Under the pieces are notes generated by a model. It was not told the origin of the DNA and searched no databases. It worked only from the letters and a program-made list of their open reading frames with translations. A DNA stretch of 64,000 bases, taken from NCBI GenBank assembly GCA_965261395.1, contig OZ253462.1, forward strand, positions 5,888,001 through 5,952,000. The letters are read 5' to 3'. Shown piece by piece: positions 6,001 to 23,490 of this stretch (position 1 is the first letter of the stretch; every line of letters starts with the position of its first letter). Position numbers and translations under genes: made by a program. Source of the stretch: Candidatus Latescibacterota bacterium (GTDB lineage: Bacteria > Latescibacterota > UBA2968 > UBA8231).

Positions 6001-6335
6001 AAGGTTTTGTTCCCGTATCCATGCGTCGCCATCTGCTCGCGATAGAAGGACTGGACCTCAAGAATCCCCGTTTGCATCGCCTCAACTACCTCGGGGCGCT
6101 CCGTCCGGTCTTCGGGCAAGAAGTAGAACAGCCGTACGGTGCGGGGTTCGCCGACGTCCAGAGCCGTCCGCTTGGCCGCAGGGAGGGGCTGCTCGCGCTC
6201 CCACTCCTCGAGATCAATAACTTGGCAGAAATGCGCGCTATCGGCCGGCGAGGGCGAGGCATAGGCGACCGCTAGCGGTGTGAGAAAAGAACCGAGCAAC
6301 GCCAAAAACACGAAGTGAAGAACGGGAGTTTTCAT
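1..6335 (-). CDS. Giant secreted protein, 3'-partial (>2100 aa): signal peptide + zinc metalloprotease (HELGHAFGLQH) + tandem [cap-LRR-Ig-like] modules + fibronectin type III
   Basis: Manual translation: ATG at 6333-6335 (MKTPVLHFVFLALL), AGGAG upstream. The same frame is open at 3-810 (PGAPTNFTATPGYEKVTLSWEPP FN3; ends VCDRTPQVRDA at the edge). The ORF track reports no stop-terminated ORF in this frame, consistent with run-off. LRRs of type NQLSSLPAGLFDNLT. Confidence 0.85.
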   Translation of the reverse strand, partial: MKTPVLHFVFLALLGSFLTPLAVAYASPSPADSAHFCQVIDLEEWEREQPLPAAKRTALDVGEPRTVRLFYFLPEDRTERPEVVEAMQTGILEVQSFYREQMATHGYGNKTFQIETDAQGVPIVHRVNGDYSDSHYKTRGRPQNEINREFDTSSIVQLIVMDISRSSGGRGVGIKQRGQAIVDGRWDWRTAAHELGHAFGLQHDFRDDAYIMGYGSGRNSLSAGAAQFLAVNPYFNSSVPLEAGSAPSVQLLSSTQYSYGATSVPVQVRVRDADGLQQVILFVKTPEGVNLPTGYNEVVSYHNLSSQTDATVTFNYKGGLPSKGDDDTSLLDQLRHTIYVSAVDKQGNRIDSPYDWTLQAINIPQANTPVSERSPQVRESIYQVVSRFQDRSVSSYEHITDAHLAAINTLFVNNIHASDSPLQSNDLDGLTGLESLELRLGDGFSEESLLPAGIFAGLTSLSRLNFLYYTNIHGDDPSLYPILPLPVGLEKVGEGQFKVVVPYGAPFDMDLPLHVVNGRINGGATTITIPTGSVESAPFTVTRIPSTTAAVIVDIETLPNTSIPTGHSGYSFYRSSFLLEIFSPLPGAPTPVTERTPQVLDAIVGAVPEINHVLHDREVRYMVNGRFTDQTSNFGHYVSEAHLAAITSLDVSGSSGGDLSLGGNWFSLQGNATELKPGDFDGLTNLTELRLDDNELSALPSGLFDQLTNLTELKLDGNQLSALPDGLFDQLTNLTELALSNNDLSALPDGLFDQLTNLTVLTLNNNQLSALPDGLFDQLTNLTRLYLNSNQLSALPDGLFDRLANLTLLNLFDNPLSSLQESDFDHLTNLTTLILPGNSNSSNLSLEFSGDTPVCDRSPQVRDAIVAAVPGVRNCRNVTEVHLAAITDTELELSGSSITELKPGDFDNLTNLRGLGLVDNQLSSLPEDIFEYLINLEALGIANTQLSSLPDGLFKNLTNLRLLSLSGNQLSSLPEGLFENQTNLTFLDLSGNQLSSLPDGLFNKVTLLDLSGNQLSSLPEGLFDKATFALDLSDNQLSSLPDGLFKGIFDEPPDFTGFELFGNPLGPLTEDTYDYSANTTSLDLTGNPGAPLPLIVSLEKVADGQFKVVVPAGSPLYMVLPLTIGNGSISSGATTITIPAGSVESETLTITRTPGTTFAVTVDIGTLPELPSTHEGYALVKPTDLPLVFTEFGGMISVCERTPQVRDAIWGRTGTSACSAITEAHLATITRLDLNHGGLYSRNISITALKLGDFDGLTNLRGLNLSDNQLSSLPAGLFDNLTALETLNLHDTQLSTLPTGLFDNLTNLRGLSLNDTQLSSLPAGLFDNLTALATLSLNGNQLSTLPAGLFDNLTALQYLYLHDTQLSTLPAGLFDNLTALQYLDLSGNQLSSLPDGLFGNLTALEGLYLYDTQLSSLPAGLFGNLTNLPELYLHDNQLSSLPAGLFGNLTNPTYIELGNNQLSSLPAGLFGNPTELFLGLNDNQLSSLPAGLFGNLTNLTYLNLTYNLINPLPLTVSLEKVAEGQFKAVAPSGAPFEMVLPLTVANGNISGGATTITIPAGSLESEPLTVTRTPGTTFAVTVDIGTLPGLPADHSGYTLVKSADLPLEIFSRLAGALTPVSERTPQVRDAILGVVRLNYPSISNYADITEIHLAGITSLYLNNSNITALQTGDFDGLTGLTELRLNGNQLTTLPADIFSGLSSLVTLDLSNNPQLSLSDGIFTGLSLTTLDLSSTPVSNVPPGALAGRPGGTDSDNQRNNASITVSLEKVGEDQVKAVAPTGAPFEIVLPLSVVNGSIDGGATTITIPSGSVESEPLTVTRTPGTTSAVTVDIGTLPGLPTNHSGYAFVKSSDLPLVLTEGNTPNESVLTLTVGAGPGAALRGYNPHSVPDWNFGSLSSRTFVLNGVSYTLYRLYYSVAGKRLEIQTSPMLRGFELHLDSHLLRSFSALDYNLHQWNNVDLNWSVGQQVQVRVVETTPIPPGAPTNFTATPGYEKVTLSWEPPTNADPTTLPVTEYEFRVSDDGGNTWNPDWDIISSSRSGQSNRTSCTIGDRDHNPNVDDIIDINLTNGTSYTFEIRARGGDGSGDAAHITAIPGGVIPVCDRTPQVRDA
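1830..2600 (-). repeat. Tandem ~72-bp LRR coding repeats (~11 units)
   Basis: Recurring caggcccgctggcaacg..ctcaactgg with variable intervening codons; further LRR blocks at ~3200-3630 and ~3840-4310. Confidence 0.9.
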
Positions 6336-6456
6336 CGCGTCTGGCTCCTGTAATATAGGTTTGCTTCTAGGTCGGGCCGTGCCCAAACGCGGGGCTGTCC
6401 CCGATCCCGCTTATACATTAATAAATACAGCGATACAACTACGAACGTATATATAA

Positions 6457-7425
6457 TCATTTATACAGCGCCCCTGCGGCCTTCATCTCCGCCGCAATCT
6501 CGCGCCGCAACTCGTCCGGTGCCAGCACCTCACACTCCGGCCCCCACCCGCGAATCCAAGACTTGATCTCCAAAACGTGATTGACCCGAAACGTCAGCGT
6601 GCACCGTCCGTCTTGGTCTTCCTCTTGGGCGATCACCCCCGGCCAGTCCGATTCCCGCACCCGATAGACCGCCTCCTTGGAAAACCGCATTTTCACCTCC
6701 TCCTCGCAGCCGCCCCGGACTCCCCAGGCGTGCTTGAGATACTCGTAGGGGTCAAAATCCGGCGGCTCAAAGTGGGTCTCCAACACCTCAACCCGCTCCA
6801 ACCGCTCGATCTTGAACGAGCGGTTGGCTTGGCGAAAGTGATCGAACCCATACACATAGCAGGAATAGCCAATAAAGGACGGCTCGATAAAAAAGGGATC
6901 GAACAGGCGCTCTGAACGCGTCCCAGAGACAGGATCTTGATAGGTGAGCTGCACCTGTCGCCGGTTAGCCCAAGCGCGGGTCAATCCTTCCAAGACATTC
7001 AGATACTTCGGCGCAGGCTGCCTTTGGGAAACGGTCTCCGCTGCGGACTCAACGTGCTCCCCAATCGCCTCGGGCAAAACCTCGGCCAGCTTGAGCAGGG
7101 AGGCGACCATGTGCGGATTGTGCTTATCGCTGTAGGCCGACAGCATCCGCGCCGCCAAGTACAGCGCGAGGGCCTCGTTTAAGTTCAACCGGATGCGCAG
7201 CGGATCCATGTGCCCGCCCTCCATGAGCTTCCAGACCCGGCCCTGCCGGTACACGGGCAGCCGCCCCCGCTCGGATAACTCCATCACATAGCGCCGGGCC
7301 GTCCGTTGACTTACGCCTAATAGCTGGGCGATTTCCATAGTTCCCACTCCTTTGGGCCGCCGCAGGAACAGTACTCTGATTTGTTCGAGCCGATCCGCCT
7401 TGTGGATTGCATCGGTTATGGGCAT
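6457..7425 (-). CDS. wHTH-WYL-WCX transcriptional regulator (PafB/PafC/DriD-like), copy 1
   Basis: N-terminal HTH (EIAQLLGVSQRTARRY), WYL core (LTYQ...RLFDPF...YVYGFDHFRQANRSFKIER), WCX tail (WIRGWGPECEVLAPDELR). Confidence 0.92.
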   Translation of the reverse strand: MPITDAIHKADRLEQIRVLFLRRPKGVGTMEIAQLLGVSQRTARRYVMELSERGRLPVYRQGRVWKLMEGGHMDPLRIRLNLNEALALYLAARMLSAYSDKHNPHMVASLLKLAEVLPEAIGEHVESAAETVSQRQPAPKYLNVLEGLTRAWANRRQVQLTYQDPVSGTRSERLFDPFFIEPSFIGYSCYVYGFDHFRQANRSFKIERLERVEVLETHFEPPDFDPYEYLKHAWGVRGGCEEEVKMRFSKEAVYRVRESDWPGVIAQEEDQDGRCTLTFRVNHVLEIKSWIRGWGPECEVLAPDELRREIAAEMKAAGALYK

Positions 7426-7490
7426 AACTCCAGCCTCCAGCAGATAAAGATAAGATTTAAGCAGACAGGGAATGTCCGTTGCGTTAAAAA
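7423..7490 (-). promoter_or_regulatory. Conserved operator/promoter element, copy 1
   Basis: Minus strand TTTTTAACGCAACGGACATTCCCTGTCTGCTTAAATCTTATCTTTATCTGCTGGAGGCTGGAGTTATG; homologous copies at 12653, 16337, 23293. Confidence 0.8.
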
Positions 7491-7582
7491 ATTTATTTTT
7501 TTGTGTCGCACGTCTCAGCCTTCTCCGTAGCGAATACCTATTTCAGCAGCAACAGCCGACGTACCTGTACTCCTTGCCATCC

Positions 7583-8737
7583 TCACCGATGGTCCTTTTG
7601 TTCCCCACCGAAAATAAAAGAGGCACCTAGGGTTACCGGCACATGCCGGGTTGGTAGCTCAAAAAACGGCTGATCCACTCGCAATTCGAGCTTGAAGCCG
7701 ACATCGTGGAAACGCAGTGCCTCTATTCCACCGACAGCATAGCCCCCCAGACCGTTGCCCGACTCTCCGCTAATGATATAGGTGAACCCACCGCCCACGT
7801 ACGGCGAGAAATTCTGCTTGTTGAAGAAGTGACGTCCGCCGAGTCCCAGGAAACCAAATTCAACCGATTCAATCTCTTCACCATCTATCTCTATGCGTCC
7901 GGCAACCCCAAACTCAAACCCCATAGCATAGGATGGGCGCTCGTTAGAAAACGCTATTTTGAAGCCGGGCTTGGCTCCCGAGTCCATGTCCGTGCCGAGG
8001 CCGTAGATGCCGAAGATTCCTATTTCCCCAGACACCTGGCTGGGTATCTTCCGGAGCACACGAGCCTCCTGTTCGACGACACTCTCCACGTCAACCGTGG
8101 AAGCGAGCGATTTTCGGTGGACGAGCGCATCGACCAATCGCGGCGCGGCTGGGATCATCTCTTCGATATTTCCCAACTGGAGCTGGCGCTCGATAAGGAC
8201 CGTTCCGATGGGGTTTTCCTGACTCAAGCGCACCAGAACCTTTTGACCGAGGCGATGCAAACCCACGCGATAAATACTCGCCGAGTACGGCGCACGGTAA
8301 ACGGGCTCGCCGACCGGTATGCCCTGCTTGCGCAACTCGTCACACACCAGCAGGGCCGCGGTGCGCGCGTCGGCTTCCGGGAAACCCGAATGTTCTCCAA
8401 TCAAGCAGACAGCCGGGGCAAATCTCGGCTCATCCGGCTCATCGGCCTGCGAAGACGGCGTTTCAGTTTCAGCCACAGGGGCGTCCTTCTTGGCATCGAC
8501 GCGACGGCTCATCTCCACAGGTTTCTTGGAGATCTTGGCAATCTCATCCATGATATAGACGAACACGCTGCCGTCTTGGGTCTGTATCTTCAGCAATCCG
8601 CCCGGAATCTGCTCGATGATGGTGCCGCGAACGATGCTTCCATTCTTCAAGTGAACGACATCTTCCATCTGCTGGGCGAAAGCCGGCGCGGTCCCTACAA
8701 AAGCCGTCAGGCACGCGACCAAGATAAACCGTAGCAT
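7583..8737 (-). CDS. Secreted hypothetical protein, C-terminal outer-membrane beta-barrel-like region
   Basis: Signal peptide (..APAFAQQ), DVVHLKNGSIVRGTIIEQ N-domain, amphipathic strands (FSPYVGGGF, FKLELRVD). Confidence 0.7.
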   Translation of the reverse strand: MLRFILVACLTAFVGTAPAFAQQMEDVVHLKNGSIVRGTIIEQIPGGLLKIQTQDGSVFVYIMDEIAKISKKPVEMSRRVDAKKDAPVAETETPSSQADEPDEPRFAPAVCLIGEHSGFPEADARTAALLVCDELRKQGIPVGEPVYRAPYSASIYRVGLHRLGQKVLVRLSQENPIGTVLIERQLQLGNIEEMIPAAPRLVDALVHRKSLASTVDVESVVEQEARVLRKIPSQVSGEIGIFGIYGLGTDMDSGAKPGFKIAFSNERPSYAMGFEFGVAGRIEIDGEEIESVEFGFLGLGGRHFFNKQNFSPYVGGGFTYIISGESGNGLGGYAVGGIEALRFHDVGFKLELRVDQPFFELPTRHVPVTLGASFIFGGEQKDHR

Positions 8738-8836
8738 ATCTTCCTCTTAAGGAATTCTACCACTTAAACACCTACGGCGGTGCAAGGTGTTACCTGTGCA
8801 GCGGATTTTTTTGTCGCTTTGCTCTGTTGAAAAGTC

Positions 8837-9008
8837 CTACGACAGCTCGCCGATAAGCCTGCGGATGTTGGTGTAGTTAGTCTGCATGGCTTCGAGCCGC
8901 GAGCCGCTTGCCGGCAGGAAGTGGGTGGCAATCGACAGGACGACGTCGCAGCGGTTGTCGCGTAGGTTGCGCAGGATAGTCGGGTAATCGACGTCTCCCT
9001 CGCCGATG
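8837..9008 (-). pseudogene. 3' fragment of the sugar-phosphate isomerase gene; direct repeat of 23491-23662
   Basis: 172 bp with 9 mismatches by manual alignment; similarity ends exactly at the stop codon. Confidence 0.9.
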
Positions 9009-9199
9009 TGAGACCACACCGTGGAGATCCATCTTGAGGGTTTCAAAATTTTCATAGGGAGTATGGTTGAATATCTACGCGGGTTAGGAGTATATTTTTC
9101 GAGTACGAAGCGGATTCACCACTCCCGAAGGGTGTGCCAAGGGTACGAAGCTTATACCTATCCGGCCCTCTTTCATTTATATCCTTAAGGTTATTTTTA

Positions 9200-11608
9200 A
9201 TGATCAAATCACTTAGCCGCATGGGCACTTGGAAGACGTATTCCATAGACGATGGCCTCGCATCGCTGCGCATTGAACACATCGCCGAGGACCGCGAGGG
9301 TTCTATCTGGTTTGCCGCGTGGGACAACGGTGCCAGCCGCTTTGACGGAGATGAGTTCCAAAATTTCACTACACGGGACGGTCTTGTTCACGACCGGGTT
9401 TTCTTCATTCAAAAGGATCGTCAGGAGCGGTTGTGGTTTGGTACCTCAAAGGGGGTCTGCTGGTACGACGGTGCAGACTTCCACCCTTTGGAGGACGACG
9501 GCATTGCAGGGCGTTCCGTGCAGTTCATCTACGAGGATCGTCAGGGTCGTATCTGGTTCGGCGGCACCGGTACCCTAGGGTATTACGATGGCTCGGCTTT
9601 CCACGACTTAATTCCACGCTATCTCCAGCAGTACCAGCCGCCTCCCTCTCCTGAGTGGGGCAACTATTGTTGGGGCATCACCGAGGATCCGCAAGGCCAC
9701 CTGTGGTTTGGCTTTGACCTCCTTACCCGCTTCGATGGCGAATCCTTCCACCGCTACAACAAGGATGAGGGTTTTCCCCGAGCAGATAACAGTTATGTCG
9801 TGAGCCAGGACCATACCGGCAAGGTGTGGATCGGTCGTAATGATTGCCACGATAAACTCTGGTACTATGCCGATGGTACCTTCCAGTCTATTCGGGTAGA
9901 TTTGGATGGCAACCTGCGCAAGATTGTGTGCGACCGGGAAGGTCGGATGTGGTTATGCACCAAGCATGGGGCATTCTACCAAGACGGTGAGGGATTCAGC
10001 CGATTTACCCCTGCCGATGGCTTACCCCATCCCGCCGTCAAAGCCATGTTCCATGATCGCGAGCATCAATTTTGGTTTGCCACTTGGGGCGGCGTCGGGC
10101 GGTACGATGCGCATAGTATCCACGTTTTCGACCTTCGTGCGAACGCAAATAGAGACATGCGTGAAGTCTCGCAGATCGTGCAAGACCGGCAAGGTGATAT
10201 ATGGGTCGGGTATGCGTCTCCCCTTATCACCCGTAAGCTCAAAAGCGTCGCCCGCTTCGATGGCGAGCACTTTACATTTGTAGATGACGAAGAAGGCTCT
10301 GACATCGGCAACTGTTTTTCCATCTACGAGGACCTTGAGGGATACCTATGGTTCGGCGGCGGAAATGGTCTGTTCCGCTACGAAGGGCAGACGCTCAAAA
10401 AGAGGAGGATAGCGGCCGATTCAGACGAAGGGGGTGTCAGCAGCATTACTCAAGATGGGGAAGGAAGATTCATTTTCGGCTATTGGGAACACTATACCCT
10501 AAGAGATAGAAAAAAGCTTTTCACCAGCCCATTAAAAATCGTGTACCAGCAGGGTGAGCAGTTCCAAACCATTTTTACGGAGGACGACAAAAAAACACTT
10601 CGTAGCCGTATAGATACGGTGATTGCCACGAACAACAACGCAATCTATTTCCATTTGGCCAGTAGCGATGGCCCAGCGAGCGGCACTGGCTTCGCCCGCT
10701 GGCATCCTGAAGAGGGCCTTACATGGTATGGGGTTGAAGATGGGCTGATCGACAACGATGTCAACGACCTACTATTAGACCGCCATGACAACCTATGGAT
10801 CGCCACGCGGGGCGGTCTCAGTTGCTTTGACGGCAGCACCTTCCGCACCTTCACCACCGAAGACGGGCTGCCGGGCAACCACATCCACTGTTTGTTTGAG
10901 GATGCACAAGGGCACCTCTGGATCGGTACCGACAGGGGTATAGGTCTTCACGATGGTCGGCTTTTCCAGACCATCAAATCACCCCATATAGCACCGGTTT
11001 GCCGCATCCTCGAAGATCGCGACGGCACCTTCTGGTTGGGCACGGTCTTGGGTTCCATTATACGCTACCGGCCACAGCAAACACCGCCCCTGATTCGTCT
11101 AATCCGGGTTGCCACCGATCAGGTCTATGAGAACATAGAGGACGTCTGCTCCTCCACGGTGGGACAGCCGGTGGTCTTCGAGTACAAGGGCCTGAGTTTT
11201 TCCACCCATCCCCGCGACATGCTCTATGTGTACCGCTTGCAGGGATACGACCTCGACTGGTGTTCAGCGACCCGAGAGCTACGAGCCTGTTATCAAAACC
11301 TGCCGCGGGGAGACTACACTTTTCAAGTCCGAGCGATAGATCGGGACCTCAACTACTCGGTGACGGCGCAGGCGCAGCTTGCGGTAGAACCTGTAGAATC
11401 CGTTAGGGAGTTATCAGTTTCTCAAGGCCCCCAAATAGTGCCTCTACTTGAATTTGAACGCCGCTATATTCTCGAAGCACTCAAAACCACCAACTGGCAG
11501 GTAAAGGGGGCAAAAGGGGCGGCGGCTCTGCTGGGGGTGCCGCCTTCTACGCTGTACGGCAAAATGAGAAAGTTGGGTATTATAAACGTTCCTAAGAAGC
11601 GTTCTTAA
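9200..11608 (+). CDS. Two-component-regulator beta-propeller + Y_Y_Y domain + C-terminal Fis-type HTH
   Basis: Repeats DGL..(N/D).V..I.ED..G.LW.GT; YQNLPRGDYTFQVRAID; ERRYILEALKTTNWQVKGAKGAAALLGVPPSTLYGKMRKLGI. Start moved to ATG 9200. Confidence 0.85.
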   Translation: MIKSLSRMGTWKTYSIDDGLASLRIEHIAEDREGSIWFAAWDNGASRFDGDEFQNFTTRDGLVHDRVFFIQKDRQERLWFGTSKGVCWYDGADFHPLEDDGIAGRSVQFIYEDRQGRIWFGGTGTLGYYDGSAFHDLIPRYLQQYQPPPSPEWGNYCWGITEDPQGHLWFGFDLLTRFDGESFHRYNKDEGFPRADNSYVVSQDHTGKVWIGRNDCHDKLWYYADGTFQSIRVDLDGNLRKIVCDREGRMWLCTKHGAFYQDGEGFSRFTPADGLPHPAVKAMFHDREHQFWFATWGGVGRYDAHSIHVFDLRANANRDMREVSQIVQDRQGDIWVGYASPLITRKLKSVARFDGEHFTFVDDEEGSDIGNCFSIYEDLEGYLWFGGGNGLFRYEGQTLKKRRIAADSDEGGVSSITQDGEGRFIFGYWEHYTLRDRKKLFTSPLKIVYQQGEQFQTIFTEDDKKTLRSRIDTVIATNNNAIYFHLASSDGPASGTGFARWHPEEGLTWYGVEDGLIDNDVNDLLLDRHDNLWIATRGGLSCFDGSTFRTFTTEDGLPGNHIHCLFEDAQGHLWIGTDRGIGLHDGRLFQTIKSPHIAPVCRILEDRDGTFWLGTVLGSIIRYRPQQTPPLIRLIRVATDQVYENIEDVCSSTVGQPVVFEYKGLSFSTHPRDMLYVYRLQGYDLDWCSATRELRACYQNLPRGDYTFQVRAIDRDLNYSVTAQAQLAVEPVESVRELSVSQGPQIVPLLEFERRYILEALKTTNWQVKGAKGAAALLGVPPSTLYGKMRKLGIINVPKKRS

Positions 11609-11671
11609 AACTCTTTTCCCGCTTGCTTCCGGCTCGCCTTTGGTATCACCGGGCCATGCCACTTCTTCGCT

Positions 11672-12655
11672 CTACTCTCGAATGGTCTTATACAGCGCCC
11701 CTGCGGCTTTCATCTCCGCCGCAATCTCGCGCCGCAACTCGTCCGGTGCCAGCACCTCACACTCCGGCCCCCACCCGCGAATCCAAGACTTGATCTCCAA
11801 AACGTGATTGACCCGAAACGTCAGCGTACAGCGCCCGTCTGGGTCTTCCTCTTGGGCGATCACCCCCGGCCAGTCCGATTCTCGCACCCGATAGATCGCC
11901 TCCTTGGAAAACCGCACTTTCACCTCCACCTCCTCGTAGCCGCCCCGGACTCCCCAGGCGTGCTTGAGATACTCGTAAGGGTCAAAATCCGGCGGCTCGA
12001 AGTGGATGTCCAACACCTCGACCCGCTCCAACCGCTCGAGCTTGAACGAGCAGTTGGCTTGGCGAAAGTGATCGAACCCATACACATAGCAGGAATAGCC
12101 AATAAAGGACGGCTCGATGAAAAAGGGATCGAACAGGCGCTTTGAGCGCGCCCCAGAGATGGGATCTCGATAGGTGAGCTGCACCTGTCGCCGGCTGGCC
12201 CAAGCGCGGATCAACCCTTTCAACACGTCCAGATACTTCGACGCAGGCTGCCTTTGGGACACGGCCTCGGCCGCACGCTCAACGTGCTCCCCAATCGCCT
12301 CGGGCAAAACCTCGGCCAGCTTGAGCAGGGAGGCGACCATGTGCGGATTGTGCTTGTCGCTGTAGGCCGACAGCATCCGCGCTGCCAAGTAGAGTGCGAG
12401 GGCTTCGTCTAAGTTCAACTCGATGCGAAGCAGATTTAGGTGCCCACCCTCGACTAGCTTCCAGACCCGGCCCTGCCGGTACACGGGCAGCCGCCCCCGC
12501 TCGGATAATTCTATCACATAGCGCCGGGCCGTCCGCTGACTCACGCCTAATAGCTGGGCGATTTCTCTGGTACCCACTCCTTCGGGCCGCCGCAGGAATA
12601 GTACTCTGATTTGTTCGAGCCGATCCCCCTTGTGGATGGCATCAGTTATGGGCAT
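11672..12655 (-). CDS. wHTH-WYL-WCX transcriptional regulator, copy 2
   Basis: Near-identical paralog of 6457-7425; start set at MPITDAIHK (12655) by homology and RBS GGAG. Confidence 0.92.
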   Translation of the reverse strand: MPITDAIHKGDRLEQIRVLFLRRPEGVGTREIAQLLGVSQRTARRYVIELSERGRLPVYRQGRVWKLVEGGHLNLLRIELNLDEALALYLAARMLSAYSDKHNPHMVASLLKLAEVLPEAIGEHVERAAEAVSQRQPASKYLDVLKGLIRAWASRRQVQLTYRDPISGARSKRLFDPFFIEPSFIGYSCYVYGFDHFRQANCSFKLERLERVEVLDIHFEPPDFDPYEYLKHAWGVRGGYEEVEVKVRFSKEAIYRVRESDWPGVIAQEEDPDGRCTLTFRVNHVLEIKSWIRGWGPECEVLAPDELRREIAAEMKAAGALYKTIRE

Positions 12656-12720
12656 GACTCCATTCTCCAGCGAATAAAGATAAACTTTAATCGGACAGGG
12701 AATGTCCTTTCCGTTAAAAA
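12653..12720 (-). promoter_or_regulatory. Conserved operator/promoter element, copy 2
   Basis: Minus strand TTTTTAACGGAAAGGACATTCCCTGTCCGATTAAAGTTTATCTTTATTCGCTGGAGAATGGAGTCATG. Confidence 0.8.
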
Positions 12721-12860
12721 ATTCATAAAAGAGAGAGTTGTCAACAAAAAGGTCCATATATGGTAAAAATGGTCCATATGTGGTCCTTGCAAAAAGAACG
12801 ATATACCATTCCTAATAAAAACAACTAAATGTGTCACATATTTTTTAGGGGCAACCAATG

Positions 12861-12985
12861 GGTCGGACAGAGCAAGGGCCTGCGTCATTTCCAAACCAGA
12901 CTCATGGAGGTGGTGCCAAACCGATGCAGATCAAACAGCCGCACCTGCACGCCAACGGCTAGTAATCGGCCTAATAATCTGCACG
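12861..12985 (-). pseudogene. Degenerate remnant of the 5' part of a 16442-18628-type gene
   Basis: tcaaacagccgcacctg, ggtggtgcc and aatcggccta(a/t)aatctg-like segments match 18390-18530 and 18679-18700. Confidence 0.6.
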
Positions 12986-15900: not shown

Positions 15901-16290
15901 CCCGTCGACGCGATGCACCAGCGGCTCGCCCTGCGCATCTGTCTCAAAACGGAAGGTTTTATTACCGTAGCCGTGTGCCTGCATCTGCTCGGCATAGAAG
16001 GTCTGAACCTGGCTAATCACCACTTTCATTTCATCAACCATTTCTTGACGATACGGCCGGTCATTGGGCAAAAAGTAGATCATCCGCACCGTGCGCGGCT
16101 CTCCCACGTTGAGGTCCTCCAGCCGCTTGGCCGCAGGTCGGGGGTGACCGCGCCGCCACTGTTCGTAGTCGTCGAAGGCGCAGAAATGCACACTATCGGC
16201 TGGCGGGGACGACGCATGGGCCAGCACCAGCGGCGAGAGAATGAGGCCGATTAACGCGAAAAGAGCGGAATGACGAACTGGAGTTTTCAT
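12986..16290 (-). CDS. Secreted zinc metalloprotease + WD40 propeller + 3 Big_1 Ig-like + FlgD-type C-terminal domain; frameshifted near 15813 (pseudogene or sequencing error)
   Basis: ORFs 15724-16290 and 12986-15799 together form one homolog of the N-terminus of the 1-6335 protein. HELGHAFGLHH; LEGHTDGVWAMAFS..G.LLASGS.D WD40 repeats; LAQNAPNPFNSQT...TRKLILLR tail. Confidence 0.8.
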
Positions 16291-16336
16291 GGGTTCAGCC
16301 TCCTGTAATTTCGATTTGCGTCCATGTCAGTGTCGG

Positions 16337-16404
16337 CATGGCTCAATCCTCCGTCAGATAAATATAAACCCGAAGCGGTCAGGGAATGTCCGTTATTTAA
16401 AAAA
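16337..16404 (-). promoter_or_regulatory. Conserved operator/promoter element, copy 3 (followed by 14-aa mini-ORF 16295-16339)
   Basis: Minus strand TTTTAAATAACGGACATTCCCTGACCGCTTCGGGTTTATATTTATCTGACGGAGGATTGAGCCATGCC; same spacing as the other copies. Confidence 0.75.
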
Positions 16405-16441
16405 TTAGGGCATTAAAGCGTATTGCGTCTCGGAGACTGAC

Positions 16442-18628
16442 CTAGTCGGCGGCCATCACATAGACCTCTGTGTTGCCATCGCGATTGGACAAGAAGGCGA
16501 GGCGCTGGCCATCTGGAGCCCAAACAGGAGACCAGTCGTCACCGACGTTCTGCGTGAGGTTGGTGGAGTTGGTGCCGTCGGCGTCCATGACATAGACCTC
16601 TGTGTTGCCGTCGCGATTGGACAAGAAGACGAGGCGTTGGCCGTCGGGAGCCCAAACAGGAGCCCACTCACCGCTGAAGTGGTATGTGAGGCTAGTTGGG
16701 TCGGTGCCGTCGGCAGCCATGACATAGACCTCTGTGTTGCCGTCGCGATTGGACTCGAACACAATGCGTTGGCCATCGGAAGACCAAACAGGATTCCCGT
16801 CGATGCCAGCGTCTTGTGTGAGGTTGGTCAGGTCGCTGCCGTCGGCGGCCATGACATAGACTTCCGCGTTGCCGTCGCGATTGGACGTAAACGCGATGTG
16901 TTGACCATCGGGAGACCAAACAGGAGCCCAGTCGTCGCCCGCGCTCTGGGTGAGGTTGGTGGGATCGGTACCGTCGGCGTCCATGACATAGACCTCTGTG
17001 TTGCCATCTCGATTGGACGTGAAGGCGAGGCGTTGGCCGTCGGGAGACCAAACAGGAGCCCAGTCGTCGCCCGTGCTCTGGGTGAGGTTGGTGGGATCGG
17101 TGCCGTCGGCGTCCATGACATAGACCTCTGTGTTGCCGTCGCGCTCAGACGTGAATGCGAGGCGTTGGCCGTCGGGAGACCAAACGATATTCCACCCGTC
17201 GGTGTCGGCGTTCTGGGTGAGGTTAGTTGGGTTGGTGCCGTCGGCGTCCATGACATAGACCTCTGTGTTGCCATCGCGACTGGACGCGAAGGCGAGGCGT
17301 TGACCGTCGGGAGACCAAACAGGAGCCCAGTCGTCACTGGCGTTCTGGGTGAGGTTAGTTGCGATGTTGCTAGCGCTGCTGAGACTCCGCACATCAAGCG
17401 TATAGTCTGTCGTCGATCTGTACGCCTCTATATGGATGTAGTAAGTACCTGAACTGACAGGAACAAGAATTTGGAAATTGAAGCCCGCAGCGGAGTTGCC
17501 GTCCCTAGCCAAGACGTTGCCAGAGCTATCAAAAATGAAGGTGTAGGCACCCATGCTACTCGTCACAGAAGCCGACAAGACGCCCGCAGTGTTCATCTCA
17601 AGGCGAAAATAATCCACATCACCCTCCGATATCGAGCCAACAGTCGAACTCCCCAAAGGCACCTCCGTCGCCTCAGAGAGCGTGTCGCCATGATCATCGC
17701 CGATCAGCGGCAACGTCGGATCGGACGGATTGTCGGTGTAGCGGACGAGGAGCAAGAGATCGGCTAAATCGACCGTGCCATCGTTGTTTATATCGCCGAG
17801 GGAAATGTCGCCGTTGTTGGGAAGAATAATGGAGGAGTCTGCTATAACATATAATAGTACATACAGCACATCCGAGATATCGACTTGCCCATCGTTGTTC
17901 ACATCCCCTAATAACCCGCCCGCAGCCACCTTCATCCGTGGGATACCGCCGTGCTCTTCGATCACAAGGTCCGCCTCGTCAATCCCCATCCGAAAAGCCG
18001 GGTTCACATACGCAACCAAACCCTCGCCCGAGACCGTCAGCCCATAGACCGAGCCATCCGCTGCCACTAAATCCTCGACCGCCGACCGCACCGGCCCCGC
18101 CGGAATCCCCGCCTGCCCATCCACCAACACCATCCGCCGACTCTCCGTCTGATCATTGCTGCTCAGCCGGTAGATATACACCCCTGCGCCCACGGCTCGC
18201 CCCGCTGCATCCGTAGCATCCCATTGCGCCATATGCACCCCTGCCGACCTCACCCCATCCACTAACGTCGCCAGACGCTGACCCAGCAGGTTGAACACTT
18301 CCAGCCGCACATGGCCAGCCACCGGCAGTTGGTAGGGAATGACGGTCGAAGGATTGAACGGATTGGGGTAATTCTGCCCCAGCGCAAAGTCGGTCGGCAG
18401 AGCTGTGCCCCTTGCCCTAGAGAGTGCTCGCAGCGGCAGCGCGAAATGCCCGGTCTCGTCCGTGGTGGTGCCGACGAACCGGCGCAGATCGGTCAAATCA
18501 AACAGCCGCACCTGTGCGCCAATGGCTGGCTGCCCAGACGACAGTCGCACCCGGCCTTCAAGGAGAGATTCTGCGCCGACGCTGACGCTCAGCACCAATC
18601 CGATGAAACTACCGATCAAATACTTCAC
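16442..18628 (-). CDS. Secreted protein: internal FlgD-like domain, dockerin/EF-hand pair, PPC-like domain, TolB/PD40 beta-propeller
   Basis: Signal peptide; LGQNYPNPFNPST; GDVNNDGQVDISD and GDINNDGTVDLAD; seven P.WSPDGQRLAF.S.RDGNTEVYVM repeats. Confidence 0.88.
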   Translation of the reverse strand: MKYLIGSFIGLVLSVSVGAESLLEGRVRLSSGQPAIGAQVRLFDLTDLRRFVGTTTDETGHFALPLRALSRARGTALPTDFALGQNYPNPFNPSTVIPYQLPVAGHVRLEVFNLLGQRLATLVDGVRSAGVHMAQWDATDAAGRAVGAGVYIYRLSSNDQTESRRMVLVDGQAGIPAGPVRSAVEDLVAADGSVYGLTVSGEGLVAYVNPAFRMGIDEADLVIEEHGGIPRMKVAAGGLLGDVNNDGQVDISDVLYVLLYVIADSSIILPNNGDISLGDINNDGTVDLADLLLLVRYTDNPSDPTLPLIGDDHGDTLSEATEVPLGSSTVGSISEGDVDYFRLEMNTAGVLSASVTSSMGAYTFIFDSSGNVLARDGNSAAGFNFQILVPVSSGTYYIHIEAYRSTTDYTLDVRSLSSASNIATNLTQNASDDWAPVWSPDGQRLAFASSRDGNTEVYVMDADGTNPTNLTQNADTDGWNIVWSPDGQRLAFTSERDGNTEVYVMDADGTDPTNLTQSTGDDWAPVWSPDGQRLAFTSNRDGNTEVYVMDADGTDPTNLTQSAGDDWAPVWSPDGQHIAFTSNRDGNAEVYVMAADGSDLTNLTQDAGIDGNPVWSSDGQRIVFESNRDGNTEVYVMAADGTDPTSLTYHFSGEWAPVWAPDGQRLVFLSNRDGNTEVYVMDADGTNSTNLTQNVGDDWSPVWAPDGQRLAFLSNRDGNTEVYVMAAD

Positions 18629-18701
18629 AGGTCATACTCCTTGTTGAATGGTTGATTGTCTTCCGACGAGTAGAAAGCAATCGGCCTAAAAATCTGTCAA
18701 G

Positions 18702-21700
18702 CTACCGCAGCAGCACGAGTTTGCGCGTCAGGATGCCCTCGTCTGTCACCAGCCGGTACAGATAGATGCCGCTGGCTAGGGGGCGACCCACGTCGTCGCG
18801 GCCATTCCAGCGCAGCCGATGGTAGCCGGCCTGCTGGTGTCCCTGGCGCAGGACGGCCACTCGCTGCCCGATCATCGAGAACACCTCGAGGCGCGCCGGT
18901 CCTGGTTCCAACAGGAAGTAGGAGAGGACGGTCTGGCTGTTGAACGGATTGGGCGCGTTTTGCTGCAACTGGGTTTTCTCCGGCAGGCCGATCAACGCCT
19001 GGGCCTTAGCTGCCGGCTGGGACGGCGCCGCCATGTGGTAGGCGTAAATCTTGTCGTCCTCCTCGTCCGCCACCCATAGGGTCATGCCGTCCGCCCAGAG
19101 GCCCGTGGGGCTGTCGTTTCCAGCGGCTTGTAGGGTATTGAAATCGTTGTTGGGGTCTCGGGCCTTGGTGGACAGGTTATAGGCGTAAATCTTGTCGTCC
19201 GTCACGTCCGTCACCCACATGGTCGTGCCGTCCGACCAGAGGCCATAGAAGTAGGTGTTTCCAGCGGCTTGTAGGGTATTGAAATCCTTGGTTGGAACCC
19301 GTACCTTGGCGGCCATGTCGTACGCGTAGATCTTGTCGTCAGAACCGTCCGCTACCCACATGGTGATTCCGTCCGACCAGATGGCTTTGGGGTGGTCGTT
19401 TTCAGCGTCGTCCAAGGTATTGAAATCCTTGGTTGGAACCCGCTCCTTGGTGGCCATGTCGTACGCGTAAATCTTGTCGGTACCCCTTTCGTCATCGTCT
19501 GCGACCCACATGGTCGTTCCGTCGGACCAGATGCCTGTAGGGCGGTCGTTTCCAGCGGCTTGTAGGGTATTGAAATCCTTGGTTGGAACCCGCTCCTTGG
19601 TGGCCATGTCGTACGCGTAAATCTTGGTTCTACCAGAGGTGTCATTGAACCACCCCTCTAGAACCCACATGGTCGTTCCGTCGGACCAGATTCCCACAGG
19701 GGAAGAGTTTCCAGCGGCTTCTAGGGTGTTGAAATCAAACTTTGGGTTCCGGACGTAGGGGACGAGGAAGCCGGCGGTGACGGGTATTTCTACGGTGAGG
19801 GCGGGCCCGTCGTAGTTGGCGATGGCCTGCGCTTGCACCGTGAAGATCAGCGTGCCGTCGGTGGCCATGCCGCCGACGAGATCGCCGATGTACGTCAACC
19901 TGACCGTCACCACCGTGTCGCTCACGCGCCTTATGTCGGAAGAGCTGTCAAACGTTACGCCGAGGATGCCCGACATGGTCACGGCATATTGGATGGCGGA
20001 GAGATCCTGCTGGTAGGAACGGCTCGTTAGGGTCAGCGCCACCACGATGCCGTTCAGCGAGGACTCCCACAGCTGAGACGGGGATGCGACCACCGATTCC
20101 GCCACCGCGGTGACGGGTATTTGTGCGGTGAGCGCCGGCCCGTCGTAGTTGGCGATGGCCTGCGCCCCCACCGTGAAAGTCAGGGTGCCGTCGGTGGTCA
20201 GATCGCCGCTGAACGTCAACTCGACCGTCACCACCGTGTCGCCCACCCGATTTATGTCGGAGCGGTTGACCGTTACCTCGGCGATGCCCGACACGGTCAC
20301 GGCTTCCCGGATGGCGGAGATAGACCGCTCGTAGGGACGGCTCGTTAGGGTCAGCGCCACCACGCTGCCGTTCAGCGAGGACTCTCGTAGCGGAGACGGG
20401 GATGCAACCAGCGATTCCGCCAGTGCGGTGACGGGTATTTGTGCGGTGAAGGCGGGCCCGTCGTAGTTGGCGATGGCCTGCGCCCCCACCGTGAAAGTCA
20501 GGGTGCCGTCGGTGGTCAGATCGCCGCTGAACGTCAACTCGACCGTCACCACCGTGTCGCCCACCCGATTTATGTCGGAGCGGTTGACCGTTACCTCGGC
20601 GATGCCCGACACGGTCACGGCTTCCCGGATGGCGGAGATAGACCGCTCGTACGCTCCACCTGACAGCAGCAGTGCCACCACGCCGCCATCTACCGTCGCC
20701 TCCGTCAACGGGCCCGCCGTGGAGACGATTAGGGTTGGGGTTCCTTCCTCCCCTCCGGGTGCTTCTGGTTGTTGGGGTTGTTCGGGTTGCTGATCCCCGC
20801 TGTCGCCAACCGTCCCGACCGTGGACGATTCGTTGCTGTCGGTGACGTTGATGGTGACGATGATGGTGTCGGTGAGGCTACCATCGGAGACGGTGACAAC
20901 CACCGAATAGGCAGACTTCGTTTCGTAGTCCAGTGCCGCCTTGGTTTTTAACTGACCGGTCGTGGACTCTATGTTGAACGCCGCCGCATCGGTGCCGCGG
21001 AGGGTGTAGGTGAGCACGTCGTGGTCGGCATCGGTGGCGGCGATGGCGGTGCCGATGTTGACGCCGGCGGCCGTATGCTCCGCTATGGTGCGAGTGGTGC
21101 TGGCCCCGTCGGTGAACACCGGCGCGGTGTTCGCGAGAACCTCCTCTAGGTCGGTGACGTTGATCGGGACGATGATGGTGTCGGTGAGCGTTCCATCGGA
21201 GACGGTGACAACCACCGAATAGGCAGACTTCGTCTCGTAGTCCAGTGCCGCCTTGGTTTTTAACTGACCGGTCGTGGACTCTATGTTGAACGCCGCCGCA
21301 TCGGTGCCGCGGAGGGTGTAGGTGAGCACGTCGTGGTCGGCATCGGTGGCGGCGATGGCGGTGCCGATGTTGACGCCGGCGGCCGTATGCTCCGCTATGG
21401 TGCGAGTGGTGCTGGCCCCGTCGGTGAACACCGGCGCGGTGTTCGCGAGAGTACTGATGACTTCCAGCGGCAGGTCGTTGGCTTTGACGAGGGCGTAGCC
21501 GACATGGTTGGTGGGCAGTCTCGGCAAGGTGCCTATATCCACCGTGACCGCCGCCGTCGTGCCAGGGGTGCGCACCACGGTGAGGGGCGCGCTTGCTACG
21601 CTGCCGGCGGGGATCGTGAGGGTGGTTGCGCCGCCGCTGAGGCGGCCGTTGGTGACGTTAATCGGCAGCACGATCTCAAACGGTGCCCCGATGGGTGCCA

Positions 21701-23177
21701 CCGCCTGGACCTGATCCGCGCCAACCTGCTCTAACGAAAGGGTAAGCGGCAGCGGATCTACGGCGTTGCCATATAGGTAGAGCGTGGCCAGCGACGATAG
21801 CCCGTCAAACAGACCATTAGGCAACGAACTCAACTGGTTACCGTTCAAGTAGAGCGTCGTCAGCGACGACAGCCCGTCAAACAGGTCTGCTGGTAGCGTC
21901 GATAACTGGTTGTCATACAGGCGGAGTTCCACCAAGCGGGTCAGGCCCGCGAAGTCGTCGGCTTGGAGGGTTGTAATGCTTTGACCGTTCAGGAACAGAC
22001 TCGTAATGCTGGATGCTAACTGTGTCTGGGGCACGTCGTTACAATCGCTTACACTTGGCACGGCGGCCACGATCGCGTCGCGCACCTGCGGCGTGCGGTC
22101 GCAAAGGGTTATGGTTGGGGTACCCCCCTCCCCCCCGGGTGCTTCCGGTTGTTGGGGTTGTTCGGGTTGCTGATCCCCGCGGTCGCCAACCGTCCCGACC
22201 GTGGACGATAGGACTTCCAGCGGCCGGTCGCTGGCTTTGGCAAGGGCGTAGCCGGCATGGTCTGTGGGTAGCCCCGGCAAGGTGCCAATATCCGCCGTGA
22301 CCGCCGCCGTCGTGCCGGGGGTGCGCACCACGGTGAGGGGCGCGCTTGCCACGCTGCCAGCGGGGATTGTGAGGGTGGTTGCGCCGCCGCTGAGGCGGCC
22401 ATTGGTGACGCTAATCGGCAGCACGATCTCAAACGGTGCCCCGATGGGTGCCACCGCCTTGACCTGATCTGCGCCAACCTGCTCTAACGAAACGGCCAGC
22501 GGCAGCGGGTCAACCGAGTTGCCATCCAAGCGAAGCACGGCCAGCGACGACAGCCCAGCAAACAGGCTGTCAGGAAGGGTTGACAATTGGTTGTCGTCGA
22601 GTTCTAGGTGCGTCAGGTTGGTCAGGTTGCCCAGTTCTTTTGGAATGGTCCCCGTCAACTGATTGTCCGAGAGCACCAGTCGTTCTAGGTGGGTCAGGTT
22701 GCCCAGCTCAGCGGGGATTTCGCCGCTTAACCGGTTCTGATCGAGTTCGAGGTATCTCAGGTTGGCGAGGTGGCCCAACTCGGAGGGGATCTCACCGCTC
22801 AATCGGTTCTGATTGAGTACTAGGTATCTCAGGTGGGCGAGGTTGCCCAGTTCAGCGGGGATCTCGCCACTTAACAGGTTTCTTTCGAGACGCAGCTCAT
22901 ACACCTGGCCGACGTTTTCGGTGGAAACGCCTGCCCACTCGCCGAGGGGCTGGTTGCTGAGCCAGTTTGTCTTGTTCCGCCAACTGGGGCCATTGGTGGC
23001 GTTGTATAGCGCAACCAGTGCGACACTGTCGGAGTTTGCGGACTCGGACGTGAGAGCAGAGGTTGCCATCTGCTCGAACGCATCCCCGAGTTCGACCCCG
23101 TTCTGGGCGCGGCTGTCTTGCGCCAACAGAACAGCGACTAATAAGAAGGCGAGATGGAACAAGCGGTTCTTTTTCAT
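18702..23177 (-). CDS. Secreted mosaic protein: plant-type LRR, bacterial LRR-Ig modules, 2 cadherin domains, 3 Ig-like repeats, beta-propeller, FlgD-type C-terminal domain
   Basis: LSGEIPAELGNL repeats; NTAPVF...ATDADHDVLTYTL...ALDYETKSAY cadherin x2; GIWSDGTTMWV..DKIYAY repeats; LQQNAPNPFNSQT tail. Confidence 0.9.
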   Translation of the reverse strand: MKKNRLFHLAFLLVAVLLAQDSRAQNGVELGDAFEQMATSALTSESANSDSVALVALYNATNGPSWRNKTNWLSNQPLGEWAGVSTENVGQVYELRLERNLLSGEIPAELGNLAHLRYLVLNQNRLSGEIPSELGHLANLRYLELDQNRLSGEIPAELGNLTHLERLVLSDNQLTGTIPKELGNLTNLTHLELDDNQLSTLPDSLFAGLSSLAVLRLDGNSVDPLPLAVSLEQVGADQVKAVAPIGAPFEIVLPISVTNGRLSGGATTLTIPAGSVASAPLTVVRTPGTTAAVTADIGTLPGLPTDHAGYALAKASDRPLEVLSSTVGTVGDRGDQQPEQPQQPEAPGGEGGTPTITLCDRTPQVRDAIVAAVPSVSDCNDVPQTQLASSITSLFLNGQSITTLQADDFAGLTRLVELRLYDNQLSTLPADLFDGLSSLTTLYLNGNQLSSLPNGLFDGLSSLATLYLYGNAVDPLPLTLSLEQVGADQVQAVAPIGAPFEIVLPINVTNGRLSGGATTLTIPAGSVASAPLTVVRTPGTTAAVTVDIGTLPRLPTNHVGYALVKANDLPLEVISTLANTAPVFTDGASTTRTIAEHTAAGVNIGTAIAATDADHDVLTYTLRGTDAAAFNIESTTGQLKTKAALDYETKSAYSVVVTVSDGTLTDTIIVPINVTDLEEVLANTAPVFTDGASTTRTIAEHTAAGVNIGTAIAATDADHDVLTYTLRGTDAAAFNIESTTGQLKTKAALDYETKSAYSVVVTVSDGSLTDTIIVTINVTDSNESSTVGTVGDSGDQQPEQPQQPEAPGGEEGTPTLIVSTAGPLTEATVDGGVVALLLSGGAYERSISAIREAVTVSGIAEVTVNRSDINRVGDTVVTVELTFSGDLTTDGTLTFTVGAQAIANYDGPAFTAQIPVTALAESLVASPSPLRESSLNGSVVALTLTSRPYERSISAIREAVTVSGIAEVTVNRSDINRVGDTVVTVELTFSGDLTTDGTLTFTVGAQAIANYDGPALTAQIPVTAVAESVVASPSQLWESSLNGIVVALTLTSRSYQQDLSAIQYAVTMSGILGVTFDSSSDIRRVSDTVVTVRLTYIGDLVGGMATDGTLIFTVQAQAIANYDGPALTVEIPVTAGFLVPYVRNPKFDFNTLEAAGNSSPVGIWSDGTTMWVLEGWFNDTSGRTKIYAYDMATKERVPTKDFNTLQAAGNDRPTGIWSDGTTMWVADDDERGTDKIYAYDMATKERVPTKDFNTLDDAENDHPKAIWSDGITMWVADGSDDKIYAYDMAAKVRVPTKDFNTLQAAGNTYFYGLWSDGTTMWVTDVTDDKIYAYNLSTKARDPNNDFNTLQAAGNDSPTGLWADGMTLWVADEEDDKIYAYHMAAPSQPAAKAQALIGLPEKTQLQQNAPNPFNSQTVLSYFLLEPGPARLEVFSMIGQRVAVLRQGHQQAGYHRLRWNGRDDVGRPLASGIYLYRLVTDEGILTRKLVLLR

Positions 23178-23292
23178 CGGCGATCTCCTTTGGTTAAAGG
23201 ATTTCGACAGTAGCTTCTCCCTCTTGTCTGAGAGAGCTTCCGTGGACTTGAATTCATGGGAATTCGGGGGCCACGATGGTATCGGTTATGGG

Positions 23293-23360
23293 CATGGCTC
23301 TATCCTACATTAGATAAAGATAAACTTTAAGCGGACAGGGAATGTCCGTTGCGTCAAAAA
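23293..23360 (-). promoter_or_regulatory. Conserved operator/promoter element, copy 4 (followed by WYL N-terminal relic MPITDTIVAPEFP*, 23254-23295)
   Basis: Minus strand TTTTTGACGCAACGGACATTCCCTGTCCGCTTAAAGTTTATCTTTATCTAATGTAGGATAGAGCCATGCCCATAACCGAT. Confidence 0.82.
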
Positions 23361-23490
23361 AATTTAAATAGTGGGTCAATTTGAATTTTCAGTCAGGCGA
23401 AACTCATCTTAACCTTCCGCAACAGCAATCGGAACCTCAAGTAATTTCGCCTAAGCGGTGGGGCCGTACCGGCTTAGGAAGTGATAGAGG

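Follow-up and report, generated by a model that had tools for sequence, protein, structure and literature searches.

A candidate WYL-protein operator repeated ahead of secreted-protein genes in a Candidatus Latescibacterota genome

A 64,000-nt stretch of the genome of a Candidatus Latescibacterota bacterium (GenBank assembly GCA_965261395.1, contig OZ253462.1, positions 5,888,001 to 5,952,000 of the forward strand), analysed here at its full length and referred to as the window, carries four copies of a ~68-bp promoter-like element built around an inverted repeat (dyad). Two of the copies head genes for regulators with winged helix-turn-helix (wHTH), WYL and WCX domains, designated WYL1 and WYL2, and two stand upstream of genes for large secreted repeat proteins. 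Comparison of the element and of the regulators among related genomes makes it likely that a WYL protein binds the dyad and co-controls all these promoters. The 16-bp dyad and the 322-aa protein form a concrete candidate pair of operator and regulator, and their putative targets are defined: 13 sites lie in this genome, and 24 genomes together contain 49 matches to the exact pattern.

The element and its thirteen copies

Alignment of the four copies, all located on the minus strand of the window, defined a block reaching from the T-tract through ATGCC, with the shared order TTTTTT, 6-7 nt, CGGACATTCCCTG(T/A)C(C/T)G, 9 nt, TAT(C/A)TT, 21 nt including GGAG, and ATGCC, while 5' of the T-tract no relatedness between the copies was observed. 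The architecture is thus an A/T-rich UP-like tract, the dyad GGACA-N5-TG(T/A)CC with its centre 18 bp 5' of the -10-like box TAT(C/A)TT, and a short leader. The 16-mer GGACATTCCCTGWCYG, allowing up to 2 mismatches, matched the window at the four dyad positions listed below, against 0.16 matches expected, and none of 100 shuffles reached four. The coordinates, strand and layout of the elements given in an earlier note on this DNA were borne out by the alignment and this count. The copies (defined by sequence, alignment and the 16-mer scan) and the two regulator genes are as follows:

7423-7490, minus strand: element copy 1, with T-tract, dyad at 7462-7477, TATCTT box, ribosome-binding site and the WYL1 start codon at 7425-7423
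12653-12720, minus strand: element copy 2, dyad at 12692-12707, heading WYL2
16337-16404, minus strand: element copy 3, dyad at 16376-16391, leader at 16339-16295
23293-23360, minus strand: element copy 4, dyad at 23332-23347, followed by a 13-codon WYL stub at 23295-23254 (MPITDTIVAPEFP*)
6457-7425, minus strand: WYL1, a 322-aa wHTH-WYL-WCX regulator with the helix VSQRTARRY (Pfam, PADLOC)
11672-12655, minus strand: WYL2, a 327-aa paralogue of WYL1; a convergent gene comes next (Pfam)

The whole genome, assembled as one 6.55-Mb contig with 59% G+C, is labelled G000 among the compared genomes, the relatives bearing other G numbers. A regular-expression search with up to 3 substitutions returned 58 matches, including 16 with up to 2 mismatches and 13 with the T-tract and box context, and an nhmmer profile built from these 13 copies recovered the same 13 at E <= 1.6e-9 and none further up to E = 10. 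The element described in the earlier note as four-copy therefore occurs 13 times, and the genome scan proposed there, with a motif profile and a table of downstream genes, places the copies mostly before secreted-protein genes. All 13 are intergenic and each is aimed at a downstream gene. Two head intact WYL genes; the 11 others stand mostly before secreted LRR (leucine-rich repeat), WD40, cadherin, collagen, metalloprotease or outer-membrane genes. Units containing genes for secreted proteins with repeats, Ig-like domains, collagen or protease domains lie behind nine of the 13, namely copies 3 and 4 of the window and all those listed next except 486576 and 6176868. Outside the window the copies, identified by genome position, are followed by:

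486576: TonB-dependent receptor
801825: WYL stub and a secreted 192-aa protein; farther on, a 1,243-aa He_PIG protein with a tail of the type IX secretion system (T9SS)
1888998: 252-aa open reading frame (ORF) without Pfam match, then a Big_1/FlgD_ig protein
2999480: decayed gene with a WD40 part
3860989: 1,071-aa LRR protein
4011689: WYL stub, then a 529-aa LRR protein
5855509: DUF5683, collagen and PD40 genes
6176868: IS5-family transposase insertion
6279771: 863-aa Metallopep/Big_1 protein, then a 1,598-aa WD40 protein

The transposase gene at 6176868, of the IS4/IS5 family (DUF4096 + DDE_Tnp_1), is inserted immediately past the element, within the next ~1.3 kb, so that genes for DUF4956, phytase-like and metallophosphatase proteins are cut off from the element.

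The ATGCC of copies 3 and 4 opens stubs of 14 (16339-16295) and 13 codons (23295-23254), and the big genes behind them begin ~50 and 118 nt beyond the stub ATGs. The earlier assignment of these copies to the WD40-protease and LRR/cadherin genes was correct as to their upstream position, with the correction that ATGCC does not start those genes. The secreted-protein genes of the window are:

1-6335, minus strand, running out of the window to genome position 5881142: giant secreted Metallopep/Reprolysin-LRR-fn3 protein of 4,397 aa, ATG at 6335 (Pfam, ORF)
12986-16290, minus strand: Metallopep-WD40-Big_1 gene with a T9SS-type C-terminal sorting domain, in two ORFs (Pfam, NCBIfam)
18702-23177, minus strand: LRR-cadherin protein of 1,491 aa with FlgD_ig and a T9SS-type sorting domain, the first gene past copy 4 (Pfam, NCBIfam)
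16442-18628, minus strand: 728-aa protein with a CarboxypepD_reg-FlgD_ig/T9SS-type-dockerin N-terminal module (N-module) and a PD40 (TolB-like) propeller, the second gene past copy 4 (Pfam)

The T9SS type A sorting domain (TIGR04183) scored above the cut-off in three of the secreted-protein ORFs of the window. The ORF of the giant protease opens at 6386, with the ATG at 6335, co-directional with WYL1 and 121 nt past its stop, in agreement with the earlier description of a giant LRR protease following the first WYL gene. The "WD40-protease gene" of that description has the expected domains; its frame is not intact. The ORF at 15724-16290 carries Metallopep, the one at 12986-15799 carries WD40 and Big_1 (Pfam), and a frameshift near 15760-15790 divides them, at a place where the frame is uninterrupted in two paralogues, the giant LRR protein and the 863-aa protein encoded at 6279771. 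A pseudogene, an assembly error and a programmed shift are all possible.

All-against-all blastn comparison of the copies with 3-kb flanks revealed that similarity between them extends over ~55-90 nt only, except between paralogous genes. Dispersed multiple copies with such sharp borders would also suit a small mobile element with an outward-facing promoter, and the ability of GGACA/UGUCC to form a 5-bp hairpin would suit an element acting as RNA, either as a hairpin in the 5' untranslated region or as an attenuator. Both explanations appear extremely improbable. Neither terminal repeats, in the blastn comparison of 3-kb flanks, nor target duplications were seen, the copies are without exception intergenic and gene-directed, and their spread is explained by the WYL stubs described below. 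As for RNA, in five of the 13 copies the second arm reads TGACC, so that the middle pair is lost, and GGACA is not altered to restore it in any of them; the conserved -10-like box sits 3' of the dyad; and an Rfam scan of 6000-24000 (E <= 1) was blank at the elements, with two weak sub-gathering matches elsewhere.

The WYL proteins and conservation of their predicted operator

WYL1 and WYL2 are 91% identical and share the helix VSQRTARRY. Both exceed the Pfam cut-offs for HTH_11 (26.2 and 25.6 bits, respectively; cut-off 25), the WYL domain (44.0 and 39.2 bits; cut-off 21.8) and the WCX domain (74.0 and 77.8 bits; cut-off 23.9), which agrees with the earlier observation that two elements lie on wHTH-WYL genes with the same recognition helix. 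The best PADLOC profile was that of the Cas3c N-terminal module (PDLC01766, E 1.5e-76), and matches were also obtained to the "CAS associated_signaling" WYL models PDLC01652 (E 4.1e-35) and PDLC01457 (E 1.8e-30); NCBIfam TIGR03985 reached only 21.9 bits versus a cut-off of 60. The closest solved structures, PafBC (E 1e-7) and DriD (PDB 8tp8, E 2.8e-7), are distant. By sequence, WYL1 and WYL2 are regulators of the CRISPR-associated wHTH-WYL-WCX type, and with many of their orthologues heading cas operons they do not fit the "new system" of the earlier note as far as the regulator is concerned.

WYL-type regulators of this kind are normally attached to CRISPR defence genes. In this genome, the WYL genes are located at 5.89-5.90 Mb and Cas1/Cas3 matches at 0.31, 2.77 and 2.97 Mb; none of the 13 elements was found within ~20 kb of these matches, and neither WYL gene adjoins cas genes, so that the gene neighbourhood typical of the CRISPR-associated WYL branch is lacking here. 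Nor was an anti-phage defence operon seen behind the regulator, the downstream genes encoding secreted LRR, WD40 or protease domains (Pfam), and PADLOC gave zero matches for the two neighbouring genes that were searched.

A phylum-wide search for WYL1 orthologues at E <= 1e-30 identified them in 45 of 168 genomes, from which 25 upstream regions were compared and 19 proteins aligned. By identity they fall into groups A (70-100%), B (77-81%), C (55-61%) and D (48-51%). In groups A-C (13 aligned proteins) the helix is VS(Q/E)RTARRY and the dyad GGACA-N5-TGTCC, with the spacer TTCCC, CCCCC or AAAAC and a box TAT(C/A)TT or CATCTT located 10 nt past the proximal arm. In group D (10 promoters, six aligned proteins) the helix is VHRSTVYRD and the dyad TGTCGCA-N5-TGCGACA, placed at the same distance from its box, within 1 bp. 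The element is present at a fixed distance 5' of every close WYL orthologue examined, intact or broken. Among 22 distinct WYL-own promoters of groups A-C (23 rows; proteins 55-100% identical), C-GGACA and C-TGTCC are kept in 20-22 of 22 per column and the A, T, T, T of the nATnTT box in 22 of 22, with 9-16 of 22 for the spacer and near-random flanks. The earlier note had been ready to abandon its proposal should the palindrome prove no better conserved than the surrounding DNA, and the comparison came out in its favour.

Such a pattern is, on comparative grounds, the footprint expected of a dimeric protein. Since the helix and the dyad change together, the WYL protein itself is predicted to read the site, and the comparison supports the dyad as the operator of the WYL gene's own promoter. 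The WYL promoters of group B (G135, G133, G164, G134 and G159) contain a second dyad (GGACAGTAACTGTCC and variants) ~45 bp upstream of the proximal one, which suggests two operators.

One could alternatively propose that the reader of the dyad is not WYL but some other regulator or an alternative sigma factor, and that the WYL gene is just a member of the regulon of that factor. An element with intact arms in two relatives, G021 and G011, which have neither a WYL gene nor a similar helix-turn-helix (HTH), is in line with this proposal, as is the Reg_prop/Y_Y_Y/HTH_8 regulator gene at 9134-11608 inside the cluster. We nevertheless regard it as very improbable, given that a new dyad appears in just those orthologues whose WYL recognition helix differs, that the matching genomes of family f2 have their sole site at the WYL gene, and that the geometry, judged by eye from the sequence, is unlike sigma-54 or extracytoplasmic function (ECF) sigma spacing. 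The regulator in question is an 824-aa one-component protein encoded on the plus strand, convergent with WYL2.

Distribution and origin of the copies

The exact pattern GGACA-N5-TGWCC-N10-YATMTT, scanned without mismatch over 132 genomes of the class, had 49 matches in 24 genomes, versus 0 for the reversed control in all 132. Multi-copy sets are confined to family f1: nine exact matches were found in G000 (13 copies in all), seven in G134, five in G020 (six with a looser pattern), three in G138, and two each in G133, G135, G164, G165 and G022. The four matching genomes of family f2 have one site each, and this is the WYL promoter. Within the genus of the window, the element was detected in 12 of 30 other genomes. 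Among these genus relatives, only G020, G041, G013, G012 and G004 have an intact close WYL gene and in G043 and G007 it is broken; in G010, G009 and G022 the sole WYL gene encodes a paralogue of 29-31% identity.

Sites not associated with WYL genes occur in genera g13, g15 and g22, as well as in the window's own genus g1, with differing spacers and intact arms. The same classes of secreted-protein genes lie behind them in G020, G133, G134, G135, G138, G164 and G165, namely, Metallopep-LRR, Reprolysin + WD40, N-module/CARDB, outer-membrane barrels, a lipoprotein and ankyrin/fn3. In G020 the cluster is syntenic and similar to that of the window, in the order AP_endonuc_2, element, PD40 protein, element, WYL, element, lipocalin and cadherin/fn3 protein, element, outer-membrane protein and WYL pseudogene. 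Between two element copies of this cluster (C25 ~10000-24350) there are also FHA-trypsin, VWA, MotA/ExbB, FHA, PP2C and Ser/Thr-kinase-ankyrin genes.

The genes behind the WYL orthologues are of two kinds. In G012, G041, G004, G132, G043, G150, G029 and G119 the orthologues (46-78% identity) are directly 5' of type I-B or I-C cas genes; the ORFs of G013 are laid out as in G012, and HD or Cas5d matches are found behind the WYL gene in G115, G101 and G040. In G133, G134, G135, G159, G164, G165 and G138, by contrast, the WYL gene is followed by a giant CarboxypepD_reg-FlgD_ig-dockerin-LDL-b/CARDB protein. To place both kinds, a maximum-likelihood tree of 24 intact WYL proteins was constructed, the broken genes of G132, G138, G043 and G007 being left out. 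The nine WYLs linked to secreted-protein genes, a label assigned by the analyst from the downstream gene, form one clade with support of 99/98, which spans three genera, is nested among the cas-linked WYLs and is sister to those of the window's own genus. The linkage of WYL genes to secreted repeat proteins, which the earlier note had suggested looking for in relatives, is thus conserved and of single origin in this tree. Cas-linked and secreted-protein-linked orthologues have a conserved WYL-domain core in common.

Traces of WYL genes remain at copies which lack one. WYL reading-frame stubs are found behind three elements (801825, 4011689 and copy 4 of the window), and in the leader common to copy 3, 1888998 and 6279771 the WYL start (ATGCCGACA) runs directly into the final ~45 nt of the intergenic region between WYL1 and the protease gene. 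These stubs and fused leaders point to an ancestral unit of element, WYL gene and secreted protease, still seen at copy 1; the WYL-less copies are, as read from these remnants, duplicated operons from which the WYL gene has been deleted. By comparison, the module stood at first before WYL-cas operons and, in one lineage, shifted to operons of WYL and giant secreted metalloproteases or repeat proteins. In this genome, duplication of such units was followed by deletion of the WYL gene from most of them, with stubs of 3 to 23 codons left behind; the outcome is 11 secreted or outer-membrane units that bear the candidate operator and should respond in trans to the two remaining WYL genes. The copies preserve a stepwise record of how a regulon can expand when operons are duplicated and the gene for the regulator is then lost.

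Direction of control and comparison with known systems

Several observations speak against a simple regulon under WYL control. The genomes of G021 and G011, single contigs with 93-94% completeness, contain no match to the WYL domain, and the 80-aa HTH of WYL1 used as a query obtained best E values of only 0.15-0.41 there; both nevertheless keep the element, with intact arms, before intact genes of the MKA.. family (736 and 930 aa), so that constraint by the WYL protein cannot explain the arms in these two genomes. They may have been retained merely because the loss of WYL was recent, and an alignment of this locus from five species shows the ~75-nt leader to be conserved throughout to about the same degree as the dyad. 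In the genome under study, the copy at 3860989 is the most decayed (TGGCC arm, TGTCTT box) even though WYL genes are present, and the spacer is conserved among the copies as well, which indicates that they are young and that their likeness alone is no proof of selection. Finally, the N-terminal CarboxypepD_reg-FlgD_ig-dockerin module/T9SS-like domain has 86 matches in G000 (E <= 1e-10), 16 of them strong, and the element is present at only a few of the 86; the family is very large and consists of polymorphic secreted proteins with a constant N-module and a variable repeat cargo.

These facts could be accommodated by assuming that the copies are historical leftovers of duplicated WYL operons, with autoregulation being real and co-control of the other genes incidental, weak or absent, so that no selected regulon exists. 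The common spacer together with the WYL stubs marks the copies as recent duplicates, inter-copy similarity is as short as reported above, the element persists in genomes without WYL, one copy has decayed, and most secreted-protein genes of the N-module family do without it. We consider this explanation improbable, since non-WYL sites with varied spacers and intact arms precede the same gene classes in four genera, the WYLs linked to secreted proteins are one clade across three genera, and the arms and the box stayed while the flanks and leaders diverged.

Under the favoured interpretation, a WYL dimer would bind the dyad through the helix VSQRTARRY and control its own gene. If TAT(C/A)TT is the -10 box, the dyad spans about -37 to -22, a position compatible with blocking of the polymerase. 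A dimer bound there would occupy the site of sigma region 4 and repress transcription until released by a ligand of the WYL domain, whereupon WYL and the set of secreted LRR, WD40, cadherin, collagen and protease genes would be switched on together. A scan of 6000-24000 for the sigma-70 consensus detected 5 sites versus 6.9 expected, and none at the four elements, which have no -35/-10 pair. Sigma-54, ECF, MerR-type and Bacteroidota -33/-7 geometries were also considered by eye: only a -7-like TAnnTTTA fits, with no correctly spaced -33 TTTG.

We slightly favour repression over activation because the two WYL-less relatives keep the element with an intact gene, because the defence-linked WYLs BrxR and sll7009 are repressors, and because a sigma-70-type -35/-10 pair is missing at the elements; WYL binding and co-control specifically by repression falls only a little short of an even chance. 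An activator, too, would suit promoters that have GTC at about -26 and no -35 hexamer, which is a further point against our interpretation. In that case the regulon would be the same, with WYL replacing the missing -35 contact in a PafBC-like "sigma adaptation" and the promoters being off until ligand-bound WYL recruits the polymerase. With TAT(C/A)TT at -12 to -7, the GTC of the proximal arm falls at about -26 to -24, the helix reads SQRTARRY, no element has a -35 hexamer, and the distance between dyad and box, held within 1 bp even in group D, would suit a stereospecific contact with the polymerase. Activation is possible and on balance unlikely. The presence of the element before the intact 736- and 930-aa genes of G021 and G011 implies that WYL is no obligatory activator; PafBC is a tandem acting on a non-palindromic site, whereas the protein here is one chain of 322 aa and its predicted site a symmetric dyad overlapping the -35 position; the cas- and defence-linked WYLs described in the literature are repressors; and the upstream A/T tracts could act as an UP element, making the promoter self-sufficient. 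Of the earlier proposal that WYL regulates itself and surface-protein genes, the comparison lends support to such control (by footprint, change of the helix with the dyad, and shared operator-promoter), and the WYL-less relatives contradict obligatory activation.

PafBC serves the DNA-damage response of mycobacteria; its promoters keep the -10 box, have no -35 and contain a "-26 element" (-23 to -28), the GTC of which is read by two arginines (PMC8635444). The predicted regulon resembles this system in having a WYL-family factor, a -10 without -35, a GTC element at about -26 and multiple genes, and differs from it in the single chain instead of a PafB/PafC tandem, in the symmetric GGACA-N5-TGTCC instead of a non-dyad site, and in secreted-protein targets instead of repair genes; the WYL-less relatives argue against PafBC-like obligate activation. 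BrxR, a wHTH-WYL-WCX dimer, is an autoregulating repressor that binds inverted repeats with a 5-bp spacer (PMC9122601). The domain architecture and the 5-bp spacer of the predicted operator are the same here; however, BrxR has 11-bp repeats placed 3' of the -10, at two sites in one island, while in our case arms of 5-6 bp lie upstream of the -10 at 13 dispersed sites with non-defence targets. In Synechocystis, sll7009 is a CRISPR-associated wHTH-WYL negative regulator (Makarova 2014, PMC4012209). Such CRISPR-associated WYLs (for instance sll7009 and the N-terminal WYL module present in some type I Cas3 proteins) belong to the same protein family as WYL1 and WYL2, except that neither WYL gene here is near cas and the operator is multiplied onto secreted-protein genes. 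The WYL protein DriD of Caulobacter acts as a homodimer on a palindromic site, regulates its own gene and governs a small regulon (PMC9186387). This weak sequence relative of WYL1 uses a 20-bp site ending at -36, 5' of a normal -35, unlike the dyad considered here, which occupies the -35 position with no -35 present.

The closest precedent for WYL control of host-interaction surface proteins is MbpR of Lactiplantibacillus plantarum, a ligand-released repressor of large mucin-binding adhesins for host colonisation (PMC11880434); a WYL regulator of surface adhesins is thus already on record, where the earlier note knew of no such regulon. MbpR senses c-di-GMP and its motif is inside coding sequences, in contrast to the promoter dyad and the descent from cas-linked WYLs proposed here. 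By analogy, WYL1 would work like BrxR and sll7009 if it is a repressor and like PafBC if it is an activator, being a member of none of these systems. CapW is a further BrxR-like WYL repressor, found in phage-defence islands.

Our search, which mostly did not cover subscription journals, found no literature on WYL regulation in sponge symbionts or of LRR/eukaryote-like proteins. The comparison suggests that one sensor may govern the host-facing surface of a sponge-associated bacterium. Taking all observations together, one could tentatively, with rather more doubt than confidence, hypothesise that a CRISPR-associated WYL lineage was co-opted a single time, by sponge-associated Latescibacterota, to act as master switch for a fast-evolving, type IX-exported eukaryote-like arsenal of giant LRR and WD40 metalloproteases and cadherin, collagen and ankyrin proteins. 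An intracellular signal (phage or foreign nucleic acid) that elsewhere induces CRISPR defence would here remodel the host-facing surface, and new members would join the regulon by duplication of a WYL-headed operon and subsequent deletion of WYL. It would be a case of a WYL sensor of the defence type serving a purpose beyond defence or repair and, if the ligand is still an infection signal, would tie phage attack to host-interaction phenotypes in an animal symbiosis. A paper on sponge Latescibacterota lists eukaryote-like proteins and CRISPR-Cas, without mention of regulation in the parts consulted (PMC12993501).

Two further features concern the assembly of the cluster in the window. A 141-nt stretch at ~8837-8977, upstream of a 384-aa gene, is 96% identical to ~23491-23631, the 3' end of the AP_endonuc_2 gene preceding copy 4, and this repeat resembles a scar of segmental duplication left by cluster building. 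One public contig (run X6) fuses position 7438, in the leader of copy 1, to 23315, in the upstream part of copy 4, and skips 15.9 kb; this junction, which was not used as support, may represent a strain that lacks the cassettes in between or a repeat-induced collapse of the assembly.

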